This document shows, one piece after another, positions 1 through 64,000 of a DNA stretch of 64,000 nucleotides. The translations under genes were made by a program, and so were the position numbers. How positions within the stretch are numbered: the stretch's first letter is position 1; the number at the start of each line of letters is the position of its first letter. Under the pieces are notes generated by a model. That model ran no database searches. It had not been told where the DNA came from and saw only the letters and a program-made list of their open reading frames with translations. The stretch is from a virus: the IMG/VR virus record IMGVR_UViG_3300027762_000294, positions 1 through 64,000 of that record; one strand, given 5' to 3'.

Positions 1-333
1 TTATTGTCACCTTTAGAGAACGAGGCGTTCAACCAATATTTGTTACTTTTGCACTGAAAATAAAATTTTAATCAATTCTCATCGCTATTTTTTAATCAAT
101 TCCCATTGGGAACGGTAAAGATAGAGAATACGTCAAATTGAGTATTAGTTACTAATTGAAAAACGGCGTTTTGCATACATTAACTAATACCCAATTGAGC
201 GTATTCATTAATTTTTTACCGTTCCCAATGGGAATTGATTAAAAAATAGCGATGAGAATTGATTAAAATTTTATTTTCAGTGCAAAAGTAACAAATATTG
301 GTTGAACGCCTCGTTCTCTAAAGGTGACAATAA
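1..333. repeat. Terminal fold-back palindrome (putative hairpin genome end)
   Basis: 1-119 is the exact reverse complement of 215-333. The centre (120-214) pairs imperfectly: 126-132/200-206, 142-151/181-190, and 160-164/168-172 around a GGC apex. Confidence 0.9.
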
Positions 334-511
334 TCCGTTTTTCGGGGTCTTTGGGATTTTTACCTGTCATACCGTTCCCTTTTGGGAATGTAATCTGCTA
401 TTCCTATGGAAAAAAACCGGCGGGGATGCCAAAAAGGAATTCATTAAGATAACGTTTGACAAATTAATCCAAAAAAAGGAAAAAAATCTATAACTTTTTT
501 TCAAAAAAACC

Positions 512-540
512 TTGACTTCTTTCCACAACCGAGCTATAAT
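512..540 (+). promoter_or_regulatory. sigma70-type early promoter P1
   Basis: TTGACT-17 nt-TATAAT with an A/T-rich upstream tract; near-identical copies at 994 and 2492. Confidence 0.9.
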
Positions 541-574
541 TACATTATCAAAACTAAACAAAGGGCGGTTTAAC

Positions 575-931
575 ATGAAACAACAACACGATTTGGGCAC
601 ACAACTACTTCTCAGCCATATGTTACTCATCGAATTAAAAGCTATGAGCAACAATTCCACTGAATATGAGGGTTTGGGAGGTGTGACTGAGTTAGTGAAA
701 ATTATGACCAAGCAACCACTGCCGGAGGATTATGAGAAGTTTGTGAAGGTCCATGTAGAGCTACAGCAAATGGATTGCGCCATAGGGTTTTTACACCAGG
801 GCGATCCCTTTTTCTATGATCTGGATACCGGTTATCTAGTGATGATTATTGACAATGATGTGACTATGTCAATAACCTTCACACCTGAAGGCACCCAAGC
901 CGTTATGGAAGCCATGACCATCTCGTATTAA
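575..931 (+). CDS. Early hypothetical protein, paralogue family A
   Basis: ATG at 575, downstream of P1 (the track's TTG start at 512 is the -35 box). C-terminal FFYDLDTGYLVM motif is shared with the ORFs at 2553, 2917 and 5108. Confidence 0.8.
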   Translation: MKQQHDLGTQLLLSHMLLIELKAMSNNSTEYEGLGGVTELVKIMTKQPLPEDYEKFVKVHVELQQMDCAIGFLHQGDPFFYDLDTGYLVMIIDNDVTMSITFTPEGTQAVMEAMTISY

Positions 932-993
932 CCTTTAACTGTGCCCTGTAAGGGGCACAATCACTGACCCCTCCAAAAAAAAGAAAAAAAACC

Positions 994-1022
994 TTGACTT
1001 CTGTCCACAACCGAGCTATAAT
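994..1022 (+). promoter_or_regulatory. sigma70-type early promoter P2
   Basis: TTGACT-17 nt-TATAAT; same spacer and leader family as P1. Confidence 0.9.
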
Positions 1023-1055
1023 TACATCATCAAAACTAAACAAAGGAAAAGTTGT

Positions 1056-1802
1056 ATGGCAATTAAGGTGTTTGAAATCTCACAACGGCGATTAAAAATC
1101 GCACTAGATCAGTATACGAAGGGAAGTAAATTACTGATCCAAGTTACTAGCAAGAATGTGTCGTTAATGGTTGACAAATACGGGATTTGTTTTGAGTATA
1201 CCGTGCCCTCTTATTATGAAGGTGAAGGTTTTTGGTTAGCGGTCTCCCAAGATACTGTTAAGCGGTTAAAATCCGAAGTTGGTAAAAACAACAAACTTGT
1301 CAAATGTTATTATGACGCTCATCCTGCCAACTCGTTGAGTTTCGTATTGTATAACGCAACGGTTGGCGTAAAAGAAACATCGATCTCAAGTCAAGCCCCA
1401 TATGACACTGAGAGATTTGAACTGTCCACTCCCGGTGCCCCTGTTAAATTGGAGTATGGTTCTCTTTGTAAAGCAGTTGAAAATGTGAAGACAGAGAACG
1501 TAACTGAAAAAACCCCCACAGTGGTTTTGCGGCTTTATCCGGATAAAACAACCCTTGGCAGAATGATTGGTGCAGAAGAAGAGTATCTGATACATGGTGA
1601 TTGTGCTGGTGACAAGTATCCGGGCTTTGTTAGATTGGGTATGCCAAACGCCCCCATCTACTCTATCCATCTTGAGCTTTCTACCCTAACTACCATACTC
1701 AAGGCTATGCAACCACTATGTCTAGTGTTTGATAATAATGTGCGGTCTAACAAGATCATCATCAACGGTATCGAAGGTTGTACCTGGTACTTACGATATT
1801 AA
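1056..1802 (+). CDS. Early hypothetical protein (possible sliding-clamp-like fold)
   Basis: 248-aa ORF with AAGGA RBS, directly after P2. The hydrophobic pattern resembles clamp domains (weak). Confidence 0.7.
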   Translation: MAIKVFEISQRRLKIALDQYTKGSKLLIQVTSKNVSLMVDKYGICFEYTVPSYYEGEGFWLAVSQDTVKRLKSEVGKNNKLVKCYYDAHPANSLSFVLYNATVGVKETSISSQAPYDTERFELSTPGAPVKLEYGSLCKAVENVKTENVTEKTPTVVLRLYPDKTTLGRMIGAEEEYLIHGDCAGDKYPGFVRLGMPNAPIYSIHLELSTLTTILKAMQPLCLVFDNNVRSNKIIINGIEGCTWYLRY

Positions 1803-1857
1803 CATCACGCGCCCTGCAAGGGGCGCTTTATCAACCCAAAGAAAGAGGAATTGATGT

Positions 1858-2421
1858 ATGTCTAACACTTTATTTTATACACCCCATACCCTTGACGACA
1901 AAGGAAACCTTTTAGTCCACGCTGTGAAAACAGAATGTGGTTATGTAATTACGAAAAAGAATCCCGCAAACGACTACCCGGGTTATATAGAAGAGGTAGC
2001 TCTAGAATTGCCGTTGCCAGAACAAATACTAACCTCGTTTGATCTTGGGACTCTCAGACTGGGACTTTTAGATTTATGCGTAGTAACGCATTATCCCCGC
2101 TACATAGAGCGGGATCTTCTTACTCAATATCAGAACGAGGTTTTGAACTTTCTGATTCAACAGGTTCAAACCTTAGGTTTAGATTTTAGTGCTCACATGC
2201 CCTTGAGAGAGCTCCAATGTTTTCTATACCGGGTCCTTGTGAAATCGGATATGACAATTGACGAGTTTATTGATCACGTGTTGGGTTATATATCTCAATC
2301 GCAATTACGCATTTCTCTTTTGCCAACTAAAACGTCAGCCGAATCGACAGAAGTTGAAATGTCGCTTTTTGAATATAGACTCAAACTTATGCGAATCATA
2401 CACGCGGTGGTTAATGGTTAG
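1858..2421 (+). CDS. Early hypothetical protein, paralogue family B
   Basis: GAGG RBS; motifs LFYTPHT / PEQILT / YPRYI / MSLFEY shared with the ORFs at 3340 and 4494. Confidence 0.8.
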   Translation: MSNTLFYTPHTLDDKGNLLVHAVKTECGYVITKKNPANDYPGYIEEVALELPLPEQILTSFDLGTLRLGLLDLCVVTHYPRYIERDLLTQYQNEVLNFLIQQVQTLGLDFSAHMPLRELQCFLYRVLVKSDMTIDEFIDHVLGYISQSQLRISLLPTKTSAESTEVEMSLFEYRLKLMRIIHAVVNG

Positions 2422-2491
2422 TCCATAACAGGTGCGCCCTGAAAGGGGCGCTAGAAAGGAAAACACTCTACAACTTTTTTTTCAAAGACCC

Positions 2492-2520
2492 TTGACTTCT
2501 TTCCATAACCTGGCTATAAT
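2492..2520 (+). promoter_or_regulatory. sigma70-type early promoter P3
   Basis: TTGACT-17 nt-TATAAT followed by the same TACATTAT..AAACT.AACAAAGG leader. Confidence 0.9.
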
Positions 2521-2552
2521 TACATTATACAAACTGAACAAAGGAGTAATAA

Positions 2553-2864
2553 ATGAGCAACACGTATGAATTGGCTAGTAAAGCCATGAATGACTTGATC
2601 ACCATGACGTTGATCGACCCCGAAACTTTTGTTAAACATTTAGATGCCGCCGCTGATAATGCCGCTTCTGGCTTGGTGGATTGTGACTTCATATGGGGTT
2701 TAAAAAACGCGGTATTCTTTAAATACCAAGAATGCGTGTATGTACTTGATTTAGATCGTTGGATTTTGTATGCTGTTATTGATGACGGTTTTATCTTGAG
2801 TAAGGAGATCCCAGAAGAGGGAATAACGGGCGTTAATGACGAGTTAGAATTACAGTCCTATTAA
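2553..2864 (+). CDS. Early hypothetical protein, paralogue family A
   Basis: AAGGAG RBS; YVLDLDRWILYAVIDDG motif. Confidence 0.8.
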   Translation: MSNTYELASKAMNDLITMTLIDPETFVKHLDAAADNAASGLVDCDFIWGLKNAVFFKYQECVYVLDLDRWILYAVIDDGFILSKEIPEEGITGVNDELELQSY

Positions 2865-2916
2865 TCAACCGCGCCCTGCAAGGGGCGCTCAATCAATCCA
2901 AAGAAAGGAAAAAAAT

Positions 2917-3285
2917 ATGTTGTATACAGATCACTTGTTACCAGATAATAACCAAGGCTTGCTCAATATGGCGTTCTTTGCCGGGCTGTTGTTAGTAGAT
3001 CAGACGAACAGTGATGAGGGGCGTAATAGTTTTCTTAAAATGATGCATGTCCCCATTTACGGCGGTGGCTATAGTGAGGAAGAGGTAACCCATTGGTCAA
3101 ACCACTTGCATGATGAGTTCCCGTTGTTAGACCGCGGGAATTTCTTAATCACAACAACCGTGAAGTTCCCAACGTTTTACGAACTGGATTCTGGGACGTT
3201 GTTTATGGTTGTCATGCCCGGCGTCATGCTAACATTCTTAATCGACCCTGAACCAGCCAAGTTAATTCGTGATAGCCTCAAATAA
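2917..3285 (+). CDS. Early hypothetical protein, paralogue family A
   Basis: AAGGA RBS; TFYELDSGTLFM motif. Confidence 0.8.
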   Translation: MLYTDHLLPDNNQGLLNMAFFAGLLLVDQTNSDEGRNSFLKMMHVPIYGGGYSEEEVTHWSNHLHDEFPLLDRGNFLITTTVKFPTFYELDSGTLFMVVMPGVMLTFLIDPEPAKLIRDSLK

Positions 3286-3339
3286 TCAACCGCGCCCTGC
3301 AAGGGGCGCTCAATCAATCCAAAGAAAGGAGATAAATGT

Positions 3340-4008
3340 ATGAGCGACAATCGTTATTGGTATAGACCCAACACTATATATGATAATGAAGGAGAAACTT
3401 ACCGGTTGTTATTCAGTGAATTTCATTCAGGTGATTATTATACCACTACAATGTTGAACAAAAACGGTATTACTGGCAAATTTAGCGATCATTCGTTTAC
3501 AACAGTACCCTTTGAAAACATCTTGTACCCTGAACATGTATTGACCCCGTATGAGCTTAGTGCCTTAGCAACTGATGATGATTTATGGCTTTCCCCTTAC
3601 CCAGGATACCTACAACCGAGAGATGTTAATCCTGAATATATGTACTTACTGTTTGACCTTACAAGAATACTTTCTGACTCAACAATAGAATTGCCTATCA
3701 ATGATGTTGACCGTCTGTTGAAGTTTTTACAAACCACTTCCCCGTTTCGTGATAACTTAGGGGTGCATAATTTTGTTATAGAATTGTTGTTTAACCAACT
3801 ACGCAACACTAAGATTGAAAGTTATCGTACTGACTTCCCATCTAATGTATGGGCAACGACGAACACTGGTAGTATGTCACTGTTTGATTACATCTTAGTT
3901 TTGATGAATGCCTTACGCCCACGGCTTTATGGGTTATCAACAATTAGCGAACGCCCCAAAGAACGCCATATTGAGCCTTTAAACAAACAGCGTGATTTCA
4001 AACGTTAA
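3340..4008 (+). CDS. Early hypothetical protein, paralogue family B
   Basis: AAGGAG RBS; YWYRPNT / PEHVLT / YPGYL / MSLFDY. Confidence 0.8.
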   Translation: MSDNRYWYRPNTIYDNEGETYRLLFSEFHSGDYYTTTMLNKNGITGKFSDHSFTTVPFENILYPEHVLTPYELSALATDDDLWLSPYPGYLQPRDVNPEYMYLLFDLTRILSDSTIELPINDVDRLLKFLQTTSPFRDNLGVHNFVIELLFNQLRNTKIESYRTDFPSNVWATTNTGSMSLFDYILVLMNALRPRLYGLSTISERPKERHIEPLNKQRDFKR

Positions 4009-4050
4009 TCAACCGCGCCCTGAAAGGGGCGCAAAGAAAGGAGAGAATAA

Positions 4051-4413
4051 ATGTCATTACCTGAAGTAAATCCTATTATGGTATATGGACTTCGTACTTT
4101 ATTGCACAATTTTCCTAATTGTGTTTCAGGGGTGGATACATCAACACCTGATTATTTTGAAAAAGCCTTGTCTGTAATTGATGAAAACAACAAACAGTTT
4201 GTTAATGGGAGTTGGTATATTTCGATAGGAGGTATTTTAGACCTTATTTATAAATTGGGTCATAGTGGTCTCGTAGATTTTTTAAAAGACAAAGGTATCC
4301 ACCCGTATGGCAACCCACGGTTTAAGATGGAGTTGGTCTTTAATACATTAACATTAACTGCGCCCTGCAATCCAATAAAGAGAGGGAATATGATTGAAGA
4401 AGACCGTAAATGA
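4051..4413 (+). CDS. Early hypothetical protein
   Basis: AAGGAG RBS; the 3' end reads through a collapsed hairpin/RBS unit. Confidence 0.7.
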   Translation: MSLPEVNPIMVYGLRTLLHNFPNCVSGVDTSTPDYFEKALSVIDENNKQFVNGSWYISIGGILDLIYKLGHSGLVDFLKDKGIHPYGNPRFKMELVFNTLTLTAPCNPIKRGNMIEEDRK

Positions 4414-4493
4414 AGTCTTTCTTAAAACAGAAAGAACGTTTGTTTACCCCGGGTCAAAATTTGAAAGACATGCAGAATTGGGAGGCAGAATAA

Positions 4494-5066
4494 ATGGCTC
4501 ATCTTTTATATAAACCGTACACGTTTTTTAAGGGTGTAAGACTTGTTGAGGCGGTTGGTAATATGGTGACTGCAATTCTAGGAACGGGATGCAAGGTCAA
4601 GTTTTATTGCCCAGTCATACCATGCTCGAATTCCTTCATGAATATTGGAGAGGTCATGGCATTACGTGATTTCACCCGTGATTTAGAGTCAGAGGTTTAT
4701 CCTGATTATATGTGTTATTTTCCATTAGCACATAAGTACCATTTTTTAGAGGTCGGTATAAAAAGAATCATGAGTGATCCCCTGCAGTATCCTATAGAAT
4801 TAAGTGAGTTACTGTGTTTTGAGGACATACTGTTCAGACTTATTTATGATGGGGGTGATACTCCTGATGAATTGGCTGGGCGGATTCTCAGTGAACTCGA
4901 GGGTAACATCATAATGGATTATCTTACTGATGATTTTGTGCCCATACCCATCAACACTTCTGTGTTCAACATGTTGTCGTCTATGATACAAGTCACATAC
5001 CCACGGGCAAACCCGCGGTATAAGAATCGTGCTCTAAATGGGGCATGGGACATAGGACAGAAGTAA
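4494..5066 (+). CDS. Early hypothetical protein, paralogue family B
   Basis: GGAGG RBS; LLYKPYT / YPDYM / TSVFNM. Confidence 0.75.
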   Translation: MAHLLYKPYTFFKGVRLVEAVGNMVTAILGTGCKVKFYCPVIPCSNSFMNIGEVMALRDFTRDLESEVYPDYMCYFPLAHKYHFLEVGIKRIMSDPLQYPIELSELLCFEDILFRLIYDGGDTPDELAGRILSELEGNIIMDYLTDDFVPIPINTSVFNMLSSMIQVTYPRANPRYKNRALNGAWDIGQK

Positions 5067-5107
5067 AATCAACCGCGCCCTGAAAGGGGCGCTTTATTAA
5101 TTCAAGA

Positions 5108-5458
5108 ATGAGGAAAGAAGTTATGTGCTTATCTGTTGCAAAAGAATTACGGTTGTTGATGGTCACTAAGTTTACATTACATGAAGCGGCTGGCATTATC
5201 CTAAACAATCGAGTTGAGTATGACGAGTCTTACTCGTGGCTCTTGACTGAATGCTCGCCCCGTAAGAACTGCATTCTGTTTGGGTATAAAACTTGCCTAT
5301 TCAAATTTGATCTGATGGATGGCTGCTTGATTTTTGAAGGGGATGAACCCGGGTCCACTATGCAGTTATATCTGGACTCAGACCCTCAGATACACCAGCA
5401 GTATCTAGATAGATTTATCCCTTATTTAACCTGGCTTCCTTGGCTACGCGATCTATAA
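5108..5458 (+). CDS. Early hypothetical protein, probable family A
   Basis: LFKFDLMDGCLIF motif; last gene before the terminator. Confidence 0.7.
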   Translation: MRKEVMCLSVAKELRLLMVTKFTLHEAAGIILNNRVEYDESYSWLLTECSPRKNCILFGYKTCLFKFDLMDGCLIFEGDEPGSTMQLYLDSDPQIHQQYLDRFIPYLTWLPWLRDL

Positions 5459-5485
5459 CGCTGTAAAGTAAAGTAACCTAACCAC

Positions 5486-5517
5486 AACCCGGCAAGTGTT
5501 TACGCCGGGTTTTTTTT
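5486..5517 (+). terminator. Rho-independent terminator closing the early array
   Basis: AACCCGGC-loop-GCCGGGTT with a T run. Confidence 0.85.
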
Positions 5518-5587
5518 GCCTGGCTATATGGCATGGGGTATATACGATCGTTCAACCTTGGGGCTCCTAGGGCAATCCAAAGGGAAG

Positions 5588-6215
5588 GAAAGGATCTTCT
5601 TTACCGGGCTAAGTTCAATTACATCTTGTAAGTGTATACTTGTGTTTAGAATTTACCGCCATATAGAGTATACATACAAGTTTATTATGAAAATTATTCC
5701 TATCAATCAAGGGCTTACGTGATTTCAGATCACTTAGACTAAATTTTCCTATTATCTCTCTTCTTCAAATTTAAAACTTCTTAAGTTATTGATTATTCAC
5801 ACTTATCTCTCTCAATCTTTTTCGACACTTTGACAGTTTCTTATGACGTATTAAATACCATCCCCTACCCTATACTACGTTAAAGCAATTCAAGGAAATG
5901 AAAGGATCTTCTTTACCGGGCTAAGTTCAATTACATCTTGTAAGTGTATACTTGTGTTTAGAATTTACCGCCATATAGAGTATACATACAAGTTTATTAT
6001 GAAAATTATTCCTATCAATCAAGGGCTTACGTGATTTCAGATCACTTAGACTAAATTTTCCTATTATCTCTCTTCTTCAAATTTAAAACTTCTTAAGTTA
6101 TTGATTATTCACACTTATCTCTCTCAATCTTTTTCGACACTTTGACAGTTTCTTATGACGTATTAAATACCATCCCCTACCCTATACTACGTTAAAGCAA
6201 TTCAAGGAAATGAAA
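5588..6215. repeat. Perfect 312-bp tandem duplication (non-coding)
   Basis: 5588-5899 is repeated at 5900-6211, with GAAA microhomology at the junctions. Confidence 0.9.
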
Positions 6216-6649
6216 TAAGATGTTACTACCCTTAAATATATATATATTTTAAATCTTAAACTTTTTTAAAAAATATAATATAAGTGATCTTAAACTATGT
6301 AAGCTATTAATATATAAGAAGAATTTTTATAATAAATGGGTATTATACGTCGTATGAAAGATACTTCAATGTAGTAAAATATGGCGGGGTTTGACGTGTT
6401 TCAAAGTAAACTTCCAATGTACCTTAAACTGCGCCGTTGACGCGATCTTAAGTTTTCCTAAATAAACAAGCCACTTTCCTCTATAACTTGAATACCCACA
6501 CTAATAATAAATGTTAATCTTTTTTGACCCTTTGGAAGTGGGGTTATTGCTGGCGATATATTGGGGTTTTGGTTACGTTTTTCCCCTGTTTGTGAAGATT
6601 CATCTTCCAATGTCTAAAAAAGTCTGTATCGTTATAAATCAATAACTTA
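5705..6649. promoter_or_regulatory. Cluster of IHF-consensus sites (WATCAANNNNTTR)
   Basis: Exact matches at 5705-5717(+), 5782-5794(-), 6017-6029(+), 6094-6106(-) and 6637-6649(+); one-mismatch site at 6300-6312(-). Confidence 0.6.
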
Positions 6650-6713
6650 AGCGCGGTCAAAAGTGATACTTTGATTGATGTTTTAGTTACGTTTTTCCCT
6701 GTTTGTGAAGATT
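6572..6713. repeat. 28/29-bp direct repeat GTTACGTTTTTCCC(C)TGTTTGTGAAGATT x2
   Basis: Copies at 6572-6600 and 6686-6713, flanking the IHF-like site at 6637. Confidence 0.85.
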
Positions 6714-6993
6714 ATCTTTGGCTGCGCTTCTGCCCTAATCAACCTTTCTTCTTTTATTGGATTGATTTTGCCCTACAACGTCCTAATCGCCCCACCCTTA
6801 AACGATTACATCCCTAGGCATAATGATCCGGCTTAACTGAGATCTCTTTACCACGGGGCTATTACACCCCTTCTTTATGATTTGAGGGGGCGTGGGCATT
6901 TTTAGAATTTTTTTGATACAGGACTAAGGCAGGCGTATTCACGCATTTGAAGGAGGGGGGGGGTGTAGTATCGTTCCCATCGCTCGTTTGGAG

Positions 6994-7078
6994 GGTAAGT
7001 CGCCCTCATTCCAATTCCCACTACGTAGTAGGAGGTTAACATTACGATAGTGGTAAGTCGCCCTCATTCCAATTCCCA
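6994..7078. repeat. 27-bp direct repeat GGTAAGTCGCCCTCATTCCAATTCCCA x2
   Basis: Copies at 6994-7020 and 7052-7078, 31 nt apart. Confidence 0.85.
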
Positions 7079-7235
7079 TTCCATAATGAAATTGCCCTAC
7101 GAAAGTACCGTTGGTCGGACCTTTGGCTACACTCAGGGGAATACCGCTGGTATTCTAAAGGGGAGTGGTTTATACTATTATTAATGAGGGGAAGAAAACA
7201 TAAACTAACATTTACTTAAACAGGAGACATAAAGC

Positions 7236-56193: not shown

Positions 56194-56435
56194 GGTTTTG
56201 CAATCTCCCCTATGACAGATTCCGGATGAAGTTTATCCACTAAAATATTCCCCCCTTTATCTCCTAACAAAAAAACAACAACTAATACTAAACCATACCT
56301 TTTGAATGTAGTTAACTCCTCTTTTAAACTCCTGATTTCATAAGTCATTCCCTCGAGTTTACTTCTAATGTCCCTATGATCCTGAAGAAGACTATCCACT
56401 GTATCTGACAATTCTTTAACTGTTAAGTTTCCCAT
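56190..56435 (-). CDS. Holin-like single-TM protein
   Basis: Coiled coil followed by a YGLVLVVVFLLG TM segment; overlaps the endolysin stop. Confidence 0.55.
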   Translation of the reverse strand: MGNLTVKELSDTVDSLLQDHRDIRSKLEGMTYEIRSLKEELTTFKRYGLVLVVVFLLGDKGGNILVDKLHPESVIGEIAKP

Positions 56436-57013
56436 GGCACTTCCTTAGTTATATAATAACGTGGTTGTAGATATTGGGCGTCATATTCTCTCACGTCTAA
56501 ATGGACCCAAGTCGGGGATAACTCTCTAGGCTCTACAGATTTCATATTGCGCTTTCCCCACCCTATTTGACAATTACACTTAGAAATAATAGTCTCCCTA
56601 TTTTTAGCGACAAAATCAACAGCGTTACCCATATGATTTGTTGTGCGACGTCCGTGTTTTTTGTTGTTTAATTTACATCTATAACCCGACGTGATTATAA
56701 CATCCCCCACATAAAACTGAATTGCTTTTAAAGTGTAAATCAAAACCTCGTGAATACCCTTACCATCAAACCCTCCACACGAACAGTTAGGGCATTTTAA
56801 CTTCTCAAAATCAACGGGATATTTTGTTATGAACTCACACATCGCGGCTTTAGTCTTAGGTCCCGCAACACCATCAGGATGTTCATCTCCCATGTAATCA
56901 TGTTGAAACTGTTTGATTTGTTTTATTGTTTTCGGTCCCATAACACCATCCCAGGTTGTCCCGCCAAACCCTGCTAAAATTATTTGTATTCTTTCCACAT
57001 TCATGAATTCCAC
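56423..57013 (-). CDS. Endolysin: PG-binding domain + peptidase M15
   Basis: DGVMGPKT and DGVAGPKT (PG_binding_1); ITSGYRC...N...H..GNAVD and WVHLD (M15). Confidence 0.88.
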   Translation of the reverse strand: MEFMNVERIQIILAGFGGTTWDGVMGPKTIKQIKQFQHDYMGDEHPDGVAGPKTKAAMCEFITKYPVDFEKLKCPNCSCGGFDGKGIHEVLIYTLKAIQFYVGDVIITSGYRCKLNNKKHGRRTTNHMGNAVDFVAKNRETIISKCNCQIGWGKRNMKSVEPRELSPTWVHLDVREYDAQYLQPRYYITKEVPWET

Positions 57014-57726: not shown

Positions 57727-58273
57727 GGGCTAAATAGTAACGATCCGTTGAACTAAATGACGAGATTAAGGGGTATAGGTTATCGTGCTGACTTAGAGCC
57801 AACTTTAGACCTGGTTTGTCTTTGATCGTCAATTCTTGACCTTGATAATGAATGCCGGATGACATGTCAACAATCAGATGGTCTACCATCATGTCAATTT
57901 GATGGCTGCGGGATTCTTCTGCACTTGGGAGTTTCACTCCCGCATTGGTTGACGATCCTGATAAACCTCGTTTCTTTGAACCTTTGTCATCATTGATAAT
58001 TCGCTGCGTGTAAAAATTTTGAATCCCATCTCGATATGGTTGATAACTAACATGACGCAGAATAAACCAAGGTAACTCGGAAGCTAACTGATTAGCCTCT
58101 TCAGAAGATCCCATTGATTTGACTAAGTCCTCATATGAACAAAGATCAAGATCGCGTTCTGCTTGACCATCATATTCGACAGCCACGAGATATCCCTTTA
58201 CTCCCTCAACTAATAGTTGTTTGGAGATATACATCGTTTCCACATCTTTGTTGGGTTTTCCATATTTAGCCAT
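57710..58273 (-). CDS. Tail assembly chaperone (gpG-like)
   Basis: Ends CAA AAA AAA CTG GAT TAA (slippery A AAA AAA); lies downstream of the tail-tube genes. Confidence 0.75.
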   Translation of the reverse strand: MAKYGKPNKDVETMYISKQLLVEGVKGYLVAVEYDGQAERDLDLCSYEDLVKSMGSSEEANQLASELPWFILRHVSYQPYRDGIQNFYTQRIINDDKGSKKRGLSGSSTNAGVKLPSAEESRSHQIDMMVDHLIVDMSSGIHYQGQELTIKDKPGLKLALSQHDNLYPLISSFSSTDRYYLAQKKLD

Positions 58274-58859
58274 TGCGTTTTCCTCTTTTAGTGGTAGTTG
58301 AGACCTTAGTCTCTGTTGGTTGAACAGGTGGGGTAATGAGCTCTAATGCTGCCTTCTGAAAATCTCGATAAAACATTCTACTGAACGTTTCATTATCAGA
58401 TACAACATACTCTCGTTTAACCGCACGGGCGGACGGTGTGTTGGTTTCATTGGGCTTAACCAAATCCCAAGAAATGGGTTTGGCATAATAAACGACTAAT
58501 GGGTCTACAATTTCAGTAATGGCAACCAGCACATTGTGTTTCATAGCTGAATATAAACGATGATGCCCATCGGCAACATACAAATCACCATTTGAATTAC
58601 GTTCGCAAACAACGGGAATTCTAACAACCCCGTTTATAATTTCAATTCGATTCGACATTAACTCCAAAGGACTGTTAACACAAATATTGTCCCAAAATTC
58701 CAGTTTTCGATTATCTAAATAGAACTGGGTCGGTCTTACGTTCTCTTTTATTTCACGGGAATTGTAAAGAGATGTTGTTATGCGCCGTCCTTTGTAGGGT
58801 TTGATATCCGGATAATCTTTTAACCCCACATTTTGTAAAAAGGCAATTAAAGAAGTCAC
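58266..58859 (-). CDS. ParB/Srx-like domain protein
   Basis: IPVV...LYVADGHHRLYSA. Confidence 0.65.
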   Translation of the reverse strand: MTSLIAFLQNVGLKDYPDIKPYKGRRITTSLYNSREIKENVRPTQFYLDNRKLEFWDNICVNSPLELMSNRIEIINGVVRIPVVCERNSNGDLYVADGHHRLYSAMKHNVLVAITEIVDPLVVYYAKPISWDLVKPNETNTPSARAVKREYVVSDNETFSRMFYRDFQKAALELITPPVQPTETKVSTTTKRGKRNG

Positions 58860-58860
58860 T

Positions 58861-60485
58861 TCAGTTTATTCTCCATGTTGAATTTGAATTGAGGGTAAAT
58901 ATAGAGGTGGACAGGTCTATTGAAAACTCTCCAAACCCATCCACAACATCGGTACACGCATATTTAATGCCTAGCTGGACATTGAACAGCCCTGTTGAGG
59001 GGGGCACAGGTCCTATGCCGCTAATTGAATATTCGTAAGTTTCAACTCCTTTCACAATAGAAGTTGTCGAGTCGAAATTTGTAACCTGTGAATATATGTT
59101 TTTTTTAACAAACGAAAATTCAGTAACAAAATAATTTTTTGGGAATGTCAGCTTATAAAAGCCATCCTCAAGTTGAATATATCCATTTCTAACAACGCCA
59201 CTACGATCAATTATCTCTCTAGTGGAATTGTTTGAAATATACTTTATTCTTTCCAGGACGCGGTTTGAGCTTTGATCCCAAGAATACCCAATCTCATTTA
59301 TGTGGGCATCTTCAAATGTATATTTGACAATAGATCGGGATACTCCTGGAATAACATGCTCGTTTAATGTGTAAAGACTTAAGGTCAGTCCGCTATTAAA
59401 AAATACATCGGGGTTAAAATGGATATTTTCTACAGTTAAAGCATACCTTGGGAACTGCCTAACAACTCTATCAGTTTTCCCTAATGTAACATCAATATAA
59501 CCTTCATTTGCAAGACCTGTTAAATCGTGAACCTCAGTCCTTATTGGACACCATACTGAACTATTACTCTGTAATGGTGATAGAAATACGGATCTTCGTG
59601 AGATTAGCCGCACCCCCCACCCCAAACCGTGCGGGACACTTTCGCGTCACACGGCTTTCAAAGTCTTATGGCTAGGTTCTGTGACCTATGCCAACATTCA
59701 GTTCTATTTGGAAGTCAAGAAGTGTCATTTTGTCCATAGGCACCTCCTTTATTAAGTTAAGTTTTACATCTGAATTGATCTTAACTTCCAATTTTCCCTA
59801 AATGCTCTAAATAAAGTTGTTTGCAAATACTCAACATGTTTTCGAGCCTTTTTAATTAAGCCCGGTGTAAATTGCCATTTCTTACGAGGATCGTAAGCTC
59901 TGACGGCTTTTTTACTCACCTTGGTATCCAAAGTTTATTCTTTATCTAGATAGACTCCTAGCGTACTTCTGCCCCTAACTCCCTTGGGTCGTTGCGTTTC
60001 TGTCTGCCAACGTATTGTTCGTCGTCCCTTACTCGCATATTATTACGCCTCTGTGAGATTAAGGTTAACTCTCTATAAAGTTGATCTACCTTGACCTAAT
60101 CTTAACCTCATCCCTAATTTTGATTAATCCGAATATATTAACTGATTTAGACTGAGACTTTACCCCTTACACTTTTAGATGATTATGCAGTTGTATGCAC
60201 TGTTGCATATAAGTGTCTTAACTCTGTTGGGATTTAGAGGCTTCAATCGTCTCTTCGCATATTGCTAGTCATGTCAGTTTCTGCTCAGGCTAAGGTTTTA
60301 AACAGAGTTTCCTAATTCCTTAAATACGCCCTTTTGTCCCTTCGCTATACACCCTGATCCTGTTATAGCAAGTCAGAGGTCTGAAGGTAAGCACACCACG
60401 TCTCATCAGTGGCGAGGGAATTGCACCCCATTTCAGATTATCTTTCGTAACCATTTGAGTTGGCTACTTATTTAGGCACACGCAT
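58861..60485 (-). CDS. Intron-split tail gene, join(60485..60482,59573..58861), 238 aa
   Basis: Splicing gives ATG C|TA CAG AGT in frame with ORF 58861; the track's TTG start at 59625 lies within intron DV/DVI. Confidence 0.7.
59574..60481 (-). mobile_element. Group II intron (IIB-like), 908 nt, RT gene deleted
   Basis: 5' GUGUG; GGGGUGCAAUUCCC domain Ic hairpin. EBS2 (60227-60232) and EBS1 loop GCAUACA (60192-60198) complement the exon end TTGGGA-TGTATGC. DV AGCCGUGUGACGCGAAAGUGUCCCGCACGGUU; DVI with bulged A 8 nt from the terminal AU. Confidence 0.92.
59764..59931 (-). pseudogene. Truncated intron-encoded RT (RVT_N-like remnant, 55 aa)
   Basis: KKARKHVEYLQTTLFRAFRENWKLRSIQ resembles the W..KA...V..LQ.RI..A......VR.LQ N-terminal motif of chloroplast-like-class group II RTs. 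Confidence 0.65.
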
Positions 60486-61980
60486 ACATCCCAAACATAA
60501 CAGTATAACCCATATTAGATTTACCGGCTGAGAACTCAACATTAACAGCTGTTGGGGTATTAAGAGCGGGGTTATCATCGTTTGCAATCAATGTTACAGA
60601 GGGCAAATGAATAGTCAAATATTGAGTTTTCCCGTTTGAACCTTCGCAACCCTTAACACTTTGCAAAACCACAAATAGATTTGCCACACAAGAATTAGCC
60701 GACGCCATAATCAATCTTAAAGTTTTGTCATCTAAAAAGCTCTTAAAAGTCCCACCGATTTGTGATAAGTTGTTCACGCTTATTTTGTTAGGATATAGAG
60801 CGTCATTGTGTTCTTCAGAAGTTCTCCCTGATTTTTCAACCATATATGTTTCCCCTGTCTTCAATGTAAACTCAGACACGGGGTACACCTTCCCATTGAG
60901 ATAGAGAAAAGACTTAGACCCAATGAACGGCAATCCGATACTGTTATCTTTAACCAGCTTTGAATAGGGGGGCGTTCCTATCTCGGTAGGATCCGTTGTG
61001 GTTGGGCTGATATAAAAGTCGCCTCCACATAACGCGCCAAAATTCATAGTGACTAATTCATTGGATGGGGATGATAAATCAAGCGAGTGAATTACAGCCC
61101 CTCGTAAACCTTTGTAATATTTCAATGCCTCGTTTGCAACAACCAAGTTAAATGAGCTGACTTTTGTACCATTCTTAACAGTGTCAAACATATCAAGTGA
61201 CCAAGAAGACAGGTCTGTCACTTCAAAATTTCGAGTTGTTTTGAAAGTAAAATTATTGACTCCCACGGAATCAACATAAAAGATTCCGCTAGTTGCAAGT
61301 TTTTGAGAAGTTCCTTTGATGATAAATGGCTGCCCTACTTCCATAGACGAGCCACCTGTAAAAGTGTAAGTGTATAGGTTAGTTAGAGGATCAAACAATT
61401 TAGACCCTGTAAACCCAGTTACATTTAGAGTTGACCCATATTTAACTTCCCCGTGTAATACAGAAGCTATAGCATTCTTTGCAAAATCAGTCCCTGTGTA
61501 ATTTGTTTCTAGAGTAGTGGTTACAGTGAACCCTGTGATTTGCTTATTAGCTACCTGCCCATCATCACTTAAACAAACAGCTTCCGCCGATTCGGCAGCC
61601 CGTTGAATTCCTCCTGCCTTGAAGCAAATTTGTGTAAATTCAGGGAGAATGTACCACTCAGAATAGTTACCTGCTAAAGCCGCAACTAAATCAATGTTAG
61701 TAGACGGTGTCAATAATGCACTAAAGCTCCCATTCGTCTCGGTAATAATAGAATCAAAACCGAATTCATAATCCACACCATTTACTTTAACCCACACAGG
61801 TTGCCCAACAGAATATGTTGAAAAAATTTCTTTGTCAGTTATCCGTTTTAGCTTGACTTTATCAGCTGACATTTCTAAGGTATTAACTGGAGTGACTCGA
61901 TATCGTTCATAAGGCGGCTCCCCAAAAATTTCTTCAGATGCATACCCCATACTTACGTTACTATTTACTAATGTTGGCAT
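60472..61980 (-). CDS. Major tail tube protein (paralogue 1)
   Basis: GAGGA RBS; MGYASEEIFGE.P start and NG..V.SF / IHLP.V / V.F.A tube pattern; upstream of the chaperones. C-terminus is YACA* unspliced, YATE* spliced. Confidence 0.75.
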   Translation of the reverse strand: MPTLVNSNVSMGYASEEIFGEPPYERYRVTPVNTLEMSADKVKLKRITDKEIFSTYSVGQPVWVKVNGVDYEFGFDSIITETNGSFSALLTPSTNIDLVAALAGNYSEWYILPEFTQICFKAGGIQRAAESAEAVCLSDDGQVANKQITGFTVTTTLETNYTGTDFAKNAIASVLHGEVKYGSTLNVTGFTGSKLFDPLTNLYTYTFTGGSSMEVGQPFIIKGTSQKLATSGIFYVDSVGVNNFTFKTTRNFEVTDLSSWSLDMFDTVKNGTKVSSFNLVVANEALKYYKGLRGAVIHSLDLSSPSNELVTMNFGALCGGDFYISPTTTDPTEIGTPPYSKLVKDNSIGLPFIGSKSFLYLNGKVYPVSEFTLKTGETYMVEKSGRTSEEHNDALYPNKISVNNLSQIGGTFKSFLDDKTLRLIMASANSCVANLFVVLQSVKGCEGSNGKTQYLTIHLPSVTLIANDDNPALNTPTAVNVEFSAGKSNMGYTVMFGMYACA

Positions 61981-62075: not shown

Positions 62076-64000
62076 TTATCCTTTCCAGTAATTTAAACTA
62101 TATGTGTAATCGTATAATGGGGAATAAGCGGCACTATATTCCATTGTGACAGCCGTTGGGGTGTTTGATGCCGGGTTATCAACTGTAGCTACAACCGTTA
62201 CATTGGGAATATGAATCAAGAATTCATCACGGATATTTGAACCATCGTTTAAGCATGTAGCTGCACTAGACCCCCTTAAAATCAAACTGCCGGTGCAATT
62301 ATTGTTAAACTTTTCAATTTGTTGAATCATCGATTGAGACAAGAATCCCTTAGTACTCCCACTGACTCCACTAAAAGAATTCAAGTTGACAATCCCCGGG
62401 TATTCTCCGCTGGTATCTGTTAAATCGTCTGAACCTGCATTTACGTAATCGGTAGCAACTAAATCGCCCGTTCTGAAACTGAATTCGCTAACTGGGAATA
62501 CCTTGCCATTCAAATAAATGATGGAATTAGACCCCGTAAAGGAATGATTAAACCCTGAATCAATTAAGGTTGAATGATAGGGGTGTGGGGTGGGGTCTGT
62601 TAAACTTGGATTAGACTCATAACCCCCAACACCATCTACAGTCGTGTTGAGACTCATCATTTCGGTGAGGTTTGATGTAATTTCAAACGACTTGGTTAAG
62701 CAGCCGGGCAATCGAATGTAATAACCAATTCCTGTATTTACTTGGGTTAGTGTATAAGGAATAACATCCTTTCCATTATGTACGTGCGCCATCACTTTAA
62801 TATTCATTAAAACTGTTATTGTTGAAGACGGCACACTAGCAAGGTGGGAAAAACGGATGCCCCCACTCGTCCCGGTACATAAAAGAGGTTTATTTGCGAT
62901 TTTGGTATTAGGATAATCGCTAATCATAAAAAACACGCCCTTCGTAACCCCTGGAATCGGATATGGAATTAAATAATCAAATAACCCTGTGGTAGAATTT
63001 TGACCTAAATTAGTCAATTGAGCAGTTATAGCCACTGACGATTGGGAACTCCAAGTCGACCTACTCGCACTGGACAACATTAATAATGCAGGGTCGGATA
63101 AAGATAGAAACATATTTACTGTCGTGGCTAAACTATACCGAGTTCTGATCTTGGGACCGACCTGTCCCTCAATAGTCATACAAGGCTGTTCTACCGCTTC
63201 AGGCGTTCTTTGAATACCGCCATCTTTATAACAAATCTTAGTAAATGAGGGATAAACTTTTAACTCACCTGCTAAAACAGTCACGGGCTCTGTAGACCCA
63301 TCCGACCGAACGTATTGATCATCTCCAACTTTAATAAACTCAATTCCCGCGGCGTCTAAAGATGAGCCCACGGGCAAATTCTTGAGTAACTCTAAGTCTG
63401 GCTCCCCAAAGCTAAATAAGCCTTGCGGTGGGGTTACAGTTTCAAATGTCACATTTACTTTCTGAATAGGGCTTGGGATGAAAACCCCTTGGGTAATATC
63501 TTCAAGTGCACTCACTGTGAAGGTCAGTGGGTTTACAACTGTAACGGCAAAACCAGATTCCTCAAGTTTAGACTTAACTTTATCTTTAAAATTAGTATAC
63601 GTATTCCCTTGAGTTAAATACACATAACGAGTCAAACCGTCTTTTGAATCGTCTTGATATGTGGATGTGACAATAAAGTCATAACCAACACCCCCTCTCA
63701 CAAAACGCAATCGATCTCCGTCTGAAATATTAATATTCTCTAGGATATCTTGATTCTCAAAGCTTAAAGTGCGACGGCGGCTTACAGGTAACGCCCCTTC
63801 AATTATAACAGCATTCTCACTTAAAAGCTCTAACCGAGTTGGGTTGTAAGCTTTGGCTGTGATTACAAATTTACTATTGGGAGTATCGATTGTAGTCGTG
63901 TAATCAGTCAATATTAAATTCATTTTAGCCACAAGATTAGGTTTGTAATCCACTCCATCATCATAAGAGTAATACACCCGTGTTAATGGGTTGTCGGGCG
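62076..64000 (-). CDS. Tail-tube paralogue 2 with a long N-terminal extension (5' partial)
   Basis: Shares FTxICxKxGGIQR, YLNGKVxPVSEF and IHxPxVTxxAxxDNPAxNTPTAV with paralogue 1; the frame stays open to the window edge. Confidence 0.75.
   Translation of the reverse strand, partial: PDNPLTRVYYSYDDGVDYKPNLVAKMNLILTDYTTTIDTPNSKFVITAKAYNPTRLELLSENAVIIEGALPVSRRRTLSFENQDILENINISDGDRLRFVRGGVGYDFIVTSTYQDDSKDGLTRYVYLTQGNTYTNFKDKVKSKLEESGFAVTVVNPLTFTVSALEDITQGVFIPSPIQKVNVTFETVTPPQGLFSFGEPDLELLKNLPVGSSLDAAGIEFIKVGDDQYVRSDGSTEPVTVLAGELKVYPSFTKICYKDGGIQRTPEAVEQPCMTIEGQVGPKIRTRYSLATTVNMFLSLSDPALLMLSSASRSTWSSQSSVAITAQLTNLGQNSTTGLFDYLIPYPIPGVTKGVFFMISDYPNTKIANKPLLCTGTSGGIRFSHLASVPSSTITVLMNIKVMAHVHNGKDVIPYTLTQVNTGIGYYIRLPGCLTKSFEITSNLTEMMSLNTTVDGVGGYESNPSLTDPTPHPYHSTLIDSGFNHSFTGSNSIIYLNGKVFPVSEFSFRTGDLVATDYVNAGSDDLTDTSGEYPGIVNLNSFSGVSGSTKGFLSQSMIQQIEKFNNNCTGSLILRGSSAATCLNDGSNIRDEFLIHIPNVTVVATVDNPASNTPTAVTMEYSAAYSPLYDYTYSLNYWKG

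Follow-up and report, generated by a model that had tools for sequence, protein, structure and literature searches.

In bacteria, group II introns of the IIB type depend in vivo on intron-encoded proteins, and in B.a.I2 of Bacillus anthracis and C.te.I1 of Clostridium tetani splicing decides the open reading frames (ORFs) or the protein ends of adjacent coding regions. ORF-less introns of Thermosynechococcus elongatus are mobilised and spliced in trans with the aid of a protein from the same family (Mohr, Ghanem and Lambowitz 2010, PMC2882425), and Candidatus Thiomargarita nelsonii carries 57 IIB2 introns together with non-protein-coding versions of them (Flood et al. 2016, PMC4853749). In phages, a 2025 study reported 20 curated group II introns, six of them ORF-less, and hits in 9,229 IMG/VR contigs (Merk et al., PMC12350094), a set which may include the record analysed here. 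We describe a group II intron in IMG/VR virus record IMGVR_UViG_3300027762_000294, a 75,468-bp sequence of which the first 64 kb (positions 1 to 64,000, hereafter the window) were analysed as a single stretch. The intron had been proposed from the letters and ORFs of the window alone, in what we refer to as the original prediction. It lies across the overlap of two phage genes and is probably a recent, IIB-type, ORF-deleted selfish insertion, derived from an intron family of giant sulfur bacteria, into a 75-kb tailed-phage population of freshwater sediment.

The intron is 908 nt long and lies on the minus strand, opening with GUGUG at position 60481 and closing with CACCAU at 59574. The upstream gene, also on the minus strand, reads ...GGG AUG UAU GC until it is broken at 60481 by GUGUGCCUAA; at the other end the intron finishes with ...CUAUCACCAU, after which exon 2 opens with UACAGAGUAAUAG. 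The Rfam model of domains V and VI (RF00029) matches positions 59659-59574 of the minus strand over its full length (model positions 1-77) with 56.8 bits, above its gathering score of 40; the window has no other Rfam hit, and RF00029 matches nowhere else in the phage genome. The AGC triad is present in domain V and a bulged A stands at 59581 in domain VI. Folding the complete intron alone by energy minimisation did not recover the canonical domains, and a comparative fold was used in its place. This was computed with RNAalifold on a seven-member alignment, A2, of the phage intron and six ORF-less relatives from bacterial genomes (mean identity 66%), and it comprises canonical domains I to VI with 212 pairs, 113 of which have compensatory changes on both sides. 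The domain coordinates below are those of this consensus, its columns mapped to the window; EBS denotes an exon-binding site, IBS an intron-binding site and RT reverse transcriptase.

59574-60481, minus strand: group II intron, GUGUG...CACCAU (RF00029, empty-site contig, seven-member alignment)
60110-60479, minus strand: domain I, intron nucleotides 3-372, with EBS2, EBS1 and the candidate EBS3 (RNAalifold on A2)
60227-60233, minus strand: EBS2, AUCCCAA, pairing 7/7 with the exon, in a loop that varies with each copy's own exon
60192-60198, minus strand: EBS1, GCAUACA, in a hairpin loop, pairing 7/7 with the exon end
60160, minus strand: candidate EBS3 (A322), opposite the first base of exon 2, U 59573 (alignment column, 6/7 copies)
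60055-60109, minus strand: domain II (RNAalifold on A2)
59960-60049, minus strand: domain III (RNAalifold on A2)
59660-59958, minus strand: domain IV with its deleted ORF (RNAalifold; homology to the Thioploca intron resumes at the protein stop codon)
59764-59931, minus strand: RT/maturase stump, 55 codons (65% identity to residues 1-49 of protein P0023)
59624-59657, minus strand: domain V with AGC triad (RF00029, RNAalifold)
59576-59621, minus strand: domain VI with the bulged branch-point A 59581 (RF00029, RNAalifold)

The intron is matched to the site at which it stands. EBS1 (60198 to 60192) pairs at all seven positions with UGUAUGC, the last seven bases of the exon, and EBS2 (60233 to 60227) at all seven with exon bases UUGGGAU (60494 to 60488), one of which is common to IBS1; the two together cover an unbroken run of 13 bases in the 5' exon. 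Immediately 5' of EBS1 a U faces a U, so that there is no IIA-type delta pairing. The EBS3 candidate, A322 in a GGGGUA-N-AG loop, complements the first 3'-exon base in six of the seven aligned copies, although chance alone would give about one such column in 1013 fully random ones, which makes it supportive only; this column fits the IIB type but is not decisive. The identity and boundaries of the intron are thus confirmed, and with them the ribozyme frame given in the original prediction (GUGUG, AGC triad, bulged A of domain VI and terminal AU), its EBS1 match of 7/7 and its EBS2 match, put there at 6/6 and found here to be 7/7. The Infernal-type search with group II models that it had suggested gave the above-threshold RF00029 match in the 3' part of the intron. 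Its RT-less intron at 59574-60481 therefore stands in boundaries, ribozyme and protein remnant, with the addition of the strand, which it left unstated and which is minus.

The same boundaries emerge from DNA that lacks the intron. We compared contigs of four public runs over positions 59000-61000. In X3, a subsurface metagenome of another study and the one examined among the other DNA runs with words of the exons, a 1423-nt DNA contig joins 59573 to 60482, skipping the 908 bases. It has no base differences near the joint, and the join is free of ambiguity and of inserted letters; the missing segment is bounded by AT..AC when read on the plus strand, or GU..AU on the minus strand. In the other DNA runs the word share was about 0.3, consistent with intron-free exons. 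Protein homologues from other contigs, taken as the members of the 90%-identity clusters of the two interrupted proteins, tell the same story from both sides: four upstream homologues of 502 aa (P0008-P0011) and a fragment (P0007) end in GMYATE, while six downstream homologues of 237 aa (P0003, P0012, P0013, P0015, P0017, P0018) begin with MLQSNSSVW, and these ends and starts are the two products predicted for the spliced RNA. Intron-less alleles in relatives, which the original prediction had advised looking for, are thus found as five upstream homologues, six downstream homologues and one DNA contig.

These alleles also bear on the age of the insertion. P0008 is identical to the 502-aa protein of the window apart from the last residues, and since the flanking gene is otherwise identical to an intron-less allele, the insertion appears to be recent. 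The downstream protein is 95-99% conserved among relatives and its MLQSNSSVW start is invariant. The intron-bearing form is known from one sample only, in the record itself and in a 37,867-nt Logan contig of run X1, which is the probable source sample and in which the intron-bearing contig has a depth of 35, the highest among the runs compared. At least six other contigs lack the intron, which is thus not retained across the phage lineage; within a phage population that is otherwise nearly identical it is a polymorphism, rare and of recent origin.

The position of the insertion gives it consequences for two genes at once. It lies in a 14-base overlap, between ATGC and TACAGAGTAA, which contains the end of the 502-aa gene and the start of a 238-aa gene, and the exons and their reading are as follows.

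60482-61980, minus strand: exon 1, the tube-like 502-aa gene up to its second-last codons (intron-less homologues end MYATE)
60472-60481, minus strand: continuation of the upstream frame within the intron (G-UGU-GCC-UAA), which produces the unspliced end ...YACA-stop
59564-59573, minus strand: first 10 bases of exon 2, which when spliced supply upstream Ala-Thr-Glu-stop and downstream codons 2-5
58861-59573, minus strand: exon 2, encoding the body of the downstream 238-aa protein (modelled with low confidence as mainly beta strands)

Besides the end of the upstream gene, exon 1 carries IBS2 and IBS1 (60494-60482) and the ATG of the next gene (60485-60483). If the RNA is not spliced, the upstream ORF runs from 61980 to 60472, has 502 aa and ends in MYACA with a UAA at intron bases 8-10; the predicted spliced frame ends in MYATE and also has 502 aa. 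On the downstream side, the predicted splice joins ATG-C (60485-60482) to TA-CAG (59573 onwards) and yields a 238-aa protein beginning MLQSNSS, whereas in unspliced RNA the same AUG heads a frame of only five codons, MRVPK. No in-frame ATG, GTG or TTG occurs in exon 2 before codon 173 of 236, and the downstream protein would therefore need splicing for its start. The original prediction had described this arrangement correctly: the location in the two-gene overlap and the junction are exactly as it proposed, the tube-like protein is expected with or without splicing, the two forms differing only in the final two residues (CA in YACA, TE in YATE), and exon 2 offers the downstream gene no usable start ahead of codon 173. 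Its statement that splicing rewrites the C-terminus of the tube protein has to be reversed, however, as YATE is the ancestral end in all intron-less relatives and the unspliced form is the altered one. Scans for promoters and terminators gave results at chance level, with no terminator-like site between the two genes.

The intron has lost nearly all of its own protein. The ORF at 59764-59931 on the minus strand is 65% identical to residues 1-49 of the 542-aa protein P0023 (HMMER; pairwise E 1e-19, whole-library E 2.9e-11), which carries RVT_N, RVT_1, GIIM (group II maturase) and HNH domains. Because of this match we take the ORF to be the N-terminal stump, about 50 residues long, of the intron-encoded protein, as the original prediction had held for its 55-aa RT remnant. 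The stump alone has no Pfam hit, and BLASTP gave no match between it and the protein of a full-length Thiomargarita copy (L068). Similarity to the Thioploca intron resumes at the stop codon of that intron's protein and includes a shared AAAGGAGGU-N-CCU, and the codons from about 54 to the end would therefore have been deleted. RVT_1 and GIIM profiles have no match in the whole 75,468-bp phage genome, so that any maturase would be supplied in trans; looking for one in the phage had been among the proposed checks. By its sequence, the intron is thus best described as an ORF-deleted, non-autonomous derivative of an RT-encoding intron.

Domain IV also contains a 21-codon ORF (59672-59737, minus strand) headed by a strong Shine-Dalgarno-like AAAGGAGGUG, which is followed by CCU and AUG. 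The AAAGGAGGUG motif is also present after the stop codon of the protein encoded by the Thioploca intron (L003, about 6441-6460) and is a conserved part of domain IV.

Relatives of the intron were sought by applying the domain V pattern to prokaryotic genomes, one for each species, which gave 99 loci. Those similar beyond domain V occur in only three metagenome-assembled genomes (MAGs) of Beggiatoaceae (Thiomargarita sp., Thioploca sp. and a Thiotrichaceae bacterium), and the same three genomes hold all 12 loci that combine domain V with the family's start of domain VI. Six of the family copies are ORF-less and 805-899 nt long. The nearest of all (L013) is 70% identical to the phage intron over intron bases 1-585 and has a decayed trace of the same stump, while L068 is a full-length copy whose 554-aa protein has RVT_N, RVT_1, GIIM and HNH domains; proteins 47-58% identical to P0023 are encoded in all three genomes. 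In seven of the seven aligned copies EBS1 pairs over 6-8 bp with the copy's own 5' exon, ending exactly at the splice site, and EBS2 behaves likewise. The Thiomargarita, Thioploca and Thiotrichaceae group is accordingly the probable host group and the probable source of the maturase. Guanine plus cytosine content (0.41 in the intron, 0.38 in the phage, 0.41-0.46 in the Beggiatoaceae loci) is too similar to be informative.

Searches elsewhere were negative. The family signature of domains V and VI and an intron-specific 30-mer had no match in the IMG/VR viral contigs searched, and blastn of the intron found none in phage and plasmid collections. Searches for related DNA, made with the downstream protein, the 502-aa protein and its homologue P0004 in viral contigs, with P0003 in metagenome contigs and with the ligated junction in both, gave no match either, a result that is uninformative on absence.

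Two observations were made in passing on the bacterial loci. Three ORF-less copies in two of the Beggiatoaceae genomes (L015:5742-5756, L021:124-138 and L097:3341-3355) share nearly the same 5' exon end, ...GUAGGGUGGG, which suggests a shared homing site. In the MAG 'uncultured bacterium DOM43_bin32' there are dozens of domain V matches (L002, L005, L009, L011 and about 30 more), many located where contigs terminate and some repeated in tandem at a spacing of about 86 bases; a different group II intron family has expanded very strongly there and breaks the assembly.

Near-identical copies of the intron exist outside this phage. Contigs from two small sediment metatranscriptome libraries of a further study, covering 59785-60471 in X2 and 59979-60428 in X5, are 100% identical to the intron interior; they have no exon cover and so are uninformative on transcription of the phage genes or on splicing. 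The X5 contig is identical over 450 bases and then has 22 different bases where the first hairpin of the phage intron stands, and because of this divergence at the 5' hairpin we regard it as another, non-phage copy. X3, in which the phage lacks the intron, also contains on its own a 151-nt stretch of intron sequence that differs at two positions.

We propose the following explanation. The two genes would be read from one transcript, in which the intron folds and EBS1 and EBS2 hold the end of the exon, including the downstream start codon. Excision would restore both ancestral frames exactly, ...MYATE-stop upstream and AUG-CUA-CAG downstream. The reaction may proceed unaided, or more likely is helped by a host maturase from full-length introns of the family, and an enzyme of this kind would also have inserted the intron. 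From RNA that stays unspliced the upstream protein would still be made, with ...MYACA at its end, and the downstream protein would not. Ribosomes that finish the upstream gene at intron bases 8-10 may compete with folding at the 5' splice site. We infer splicing itself, the identity of the helper, and a selfish rather than a regulatory nature. The reliance of the downstream gene on splicing is genuine and follows from where the intron lies; selection for it was not seen.

Several points weigh against this explanation or narrow what can be drawn from it. Rfam models of domains I to IV (clan CL00102) found no match in 59400-60650 even at E up to 10, although introns with a hit to domains V and VI only have also been reported by Merk et al. 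(PMC12350094). Invariance of domain V in the family is by construction, as the loci were gathered with a domain V pattern. The host inference rests only on where relatives of the intron live, the nearest ribozyme relative is 70% identical, and no genome with a near-identical intron copy was found. The RNA-library contigs hold intron interior only and may represent other copies or DNA, with ligated exons and lariat unseen. Finally, in-frame starts for the downstream gene do exist inside the intron, TTG 59625 and GTG 59613, in a frame that is open from 59648; gene callers took GTG 59613 as the start (P0016, P0019), and judged from the sequence initiation may occur at either codon.

This last point belongs to a different reading of the locus, in which the intron does not splice and the downstream protein is either dispensable or made with an N-terminal extension of 13-17 residues from GTG 59613 or TTG 59625, when it would carry the peptide ...RLISRRSVFLSPLQ... 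The lack of a maturase in the phage and of any spliced RNA among the contigs seen, in addition to the open frame and the choice of the gene callers, would agree with this. We nevertheless consider it unlikely, since the six domains, triad, branch-point A and EBS/IBS pairings are all preserved and conform to the consensus of the family, and the internal starts lie within the strongly paired helices of domains V and VI, where no clear ribosome-binding site accompanies them. The conservation of the downstream protein with its invariant start also tells against an insertion that abolishes or extends it, as does the fact that the genome bearing the intron reaches the highest depth among the runs compared. 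A further objection, that a host copy or other copy of the intron was wrongly joined into the phage contig during assembly, draws on the presence of such copies in related communities; but two assemblies, the 75,468-bp record and the 37,867-nt contig of X1, hold the intron at this place, and a base-exact insertion at a 13-base site matched by EBS1 and EBS2 does not resemble a chimera, and we regard an artefact as very improbable.

It could also be argued that the intron splices but has been put to use. According to the original prediction it may be a domesticated switch, the efficiency of splicing determining how much of the downstream protein is made relative to the tube protein, or when. Such a role would suit the dependence of the downstream protein, and not of the upstream one, on splicing, as well as the location of IBS1 and IBS2 over the downstream start codon and the bases before it, and the intron-bearing form is the one assembled, at depth 35, in the source-sample run. 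The intron is, however, a polymorphism of one sample: at least six related contigs lack it, as does DNA from a separate study, and the identity of the flanking gene to an intron-less allele makes it young. It is moreover an ordinary member of a proliferating family, with exon-binding sites matched to its site as after retrohoming or retrotransposition, its splicing restores the ancestral products and creates nothing new, and there is no hint of a sensor or a regulated step. A domesticated switch is therefore decidedly improbable, and this part of the original prediction was not upheld. In a related version, which we think unlikely, the intron would be kept because it lets the downstream structural protein be made only with the maturase of certain hosts, namely giant sulfur bacteria that carry full-length introns of the family; if true, virion assembly and the balance between the two proteins would be gated by the host. 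A recent selfish insertion of the Beggiatoaceae-type family, removed from the RNA by splicing, remains the explanation that we favour.

The functions of the two interrupted genes can be named only with caution. The 502-aa protein has a weak match to PHROG 290, 'minor tail protein' (8e-5), and its structural look-alikes in the ESM-Atlas carry PF18906 (Phage_tube_2; score 0.97, template modelling score 0.67). The PF18906 profile itself has no hit in the protein (P0002) even at E up to 10, and gives E 0.56 for its homologue P0004 and E 0.03 for a 633-aa paralogue, so that the 'tail tube' label, which draws on the Atlas look-alikes and faint profile hits, is weak. The downstream protein has no recognisable family in profile searches, and its ESM-Atlas value of 0.81 is uninformative. 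A profile search of the PDB gave no match, and AlphaFold models were too poor for fold searches (predicted local distance difference test 41 for the 502-aa protein and 34 for the 237-aa protein). Of the two tail genes named in the original prediction, the tube-like one is thus weakly supported, while the label 'tail gene' was not borne out for the downstream one.

Several neighbouring features were recorded. The 633-aa ORF lies just upstream of the 502-aa gene (62076-63977, minus strand) and is its paralogue (31% identity over about 410 residues, E 8e-49), the two therefore forming a tandem pair of tube-like genes. An uninterrupted ORF of 7,744 aa (29910-53144, minus strand), described earlier as a giant tape measure protein, takes up about a third of the genome. 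Between it and the tube-like genes stand a protein with a ParB-like nuclease domain (58266-58859, minus strand; weak hits) and a peptidoglycan-binding M15 endolysin (56423-57013, minus strand), an unusual order for the tail module of a siphovirus. The record is bounded by an exact terminal inverted repeat of 7,167 bases (1-7167 in the window), very long for a tailed phage.

If the proposed explanation holds, a single group II intron serves two overlapping cistrons, the same splice restoring the stop region of one and rejoining the start codon of the other, and the efficiency of splicing would limit one phage structural protein and not its neighbour. The intron family would also provide a rare host lead for an uncultured sediment phage, in this case pointing to giant sulfur bacteria, and the coexistence of intron-bearing and empty sites offers a chance to test the cost of a non-autonomous intron to a virus.

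Phage group II introns, ORF-less ones included, are already known, and the position in a two-gene overlap is what is new. Like the phage introns of Merk et al. (PMC12350094), this one was found by its domains V and VI in a member of the Caudoviricetes, has no protein of its own, has ends set by intron-less homologues and is presumed to receive help in trans; but whereas 14 of their 20 introns interrupt genes and the rest are intergenic or located elsewhere, the present one occupies the overlap of two genes and affects two cistrons, and the text of that paper contains no mention of 'overlap' or 'start codon'. LPJP1 has an RT, whereas this phage has none. The introns of Ca. Thiomargarita nelsonii (PMC4853749) come from the same bacterial group and likewise include full-length copies with RT, maturase and HNH domains alongside scattered ORF-less ones, though they are chromosomal and this one is phage-borne; the likeness is to the published description, the nearest copy in a genome being about 70% identical over domains I-III. 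As in T. elongatus (PMC2882425), most copies are ORF-less, few full-length helpers exist, and the EBS sequences diverge to new sites, but lineage and host are different, and here the dependent copy is on a virus while the helper would be on a host genome. Particular to this locus are therefore the overlap position, the absence of an RT from the phage, and the relationship to an intron family found in giant sulfur bacteria. B.a.I2 and C.te.I1 govern adjacent coding regions through alternative splice sites, whereas here there is a single junction, and the choice would be only between spliced and unspliced RNA.

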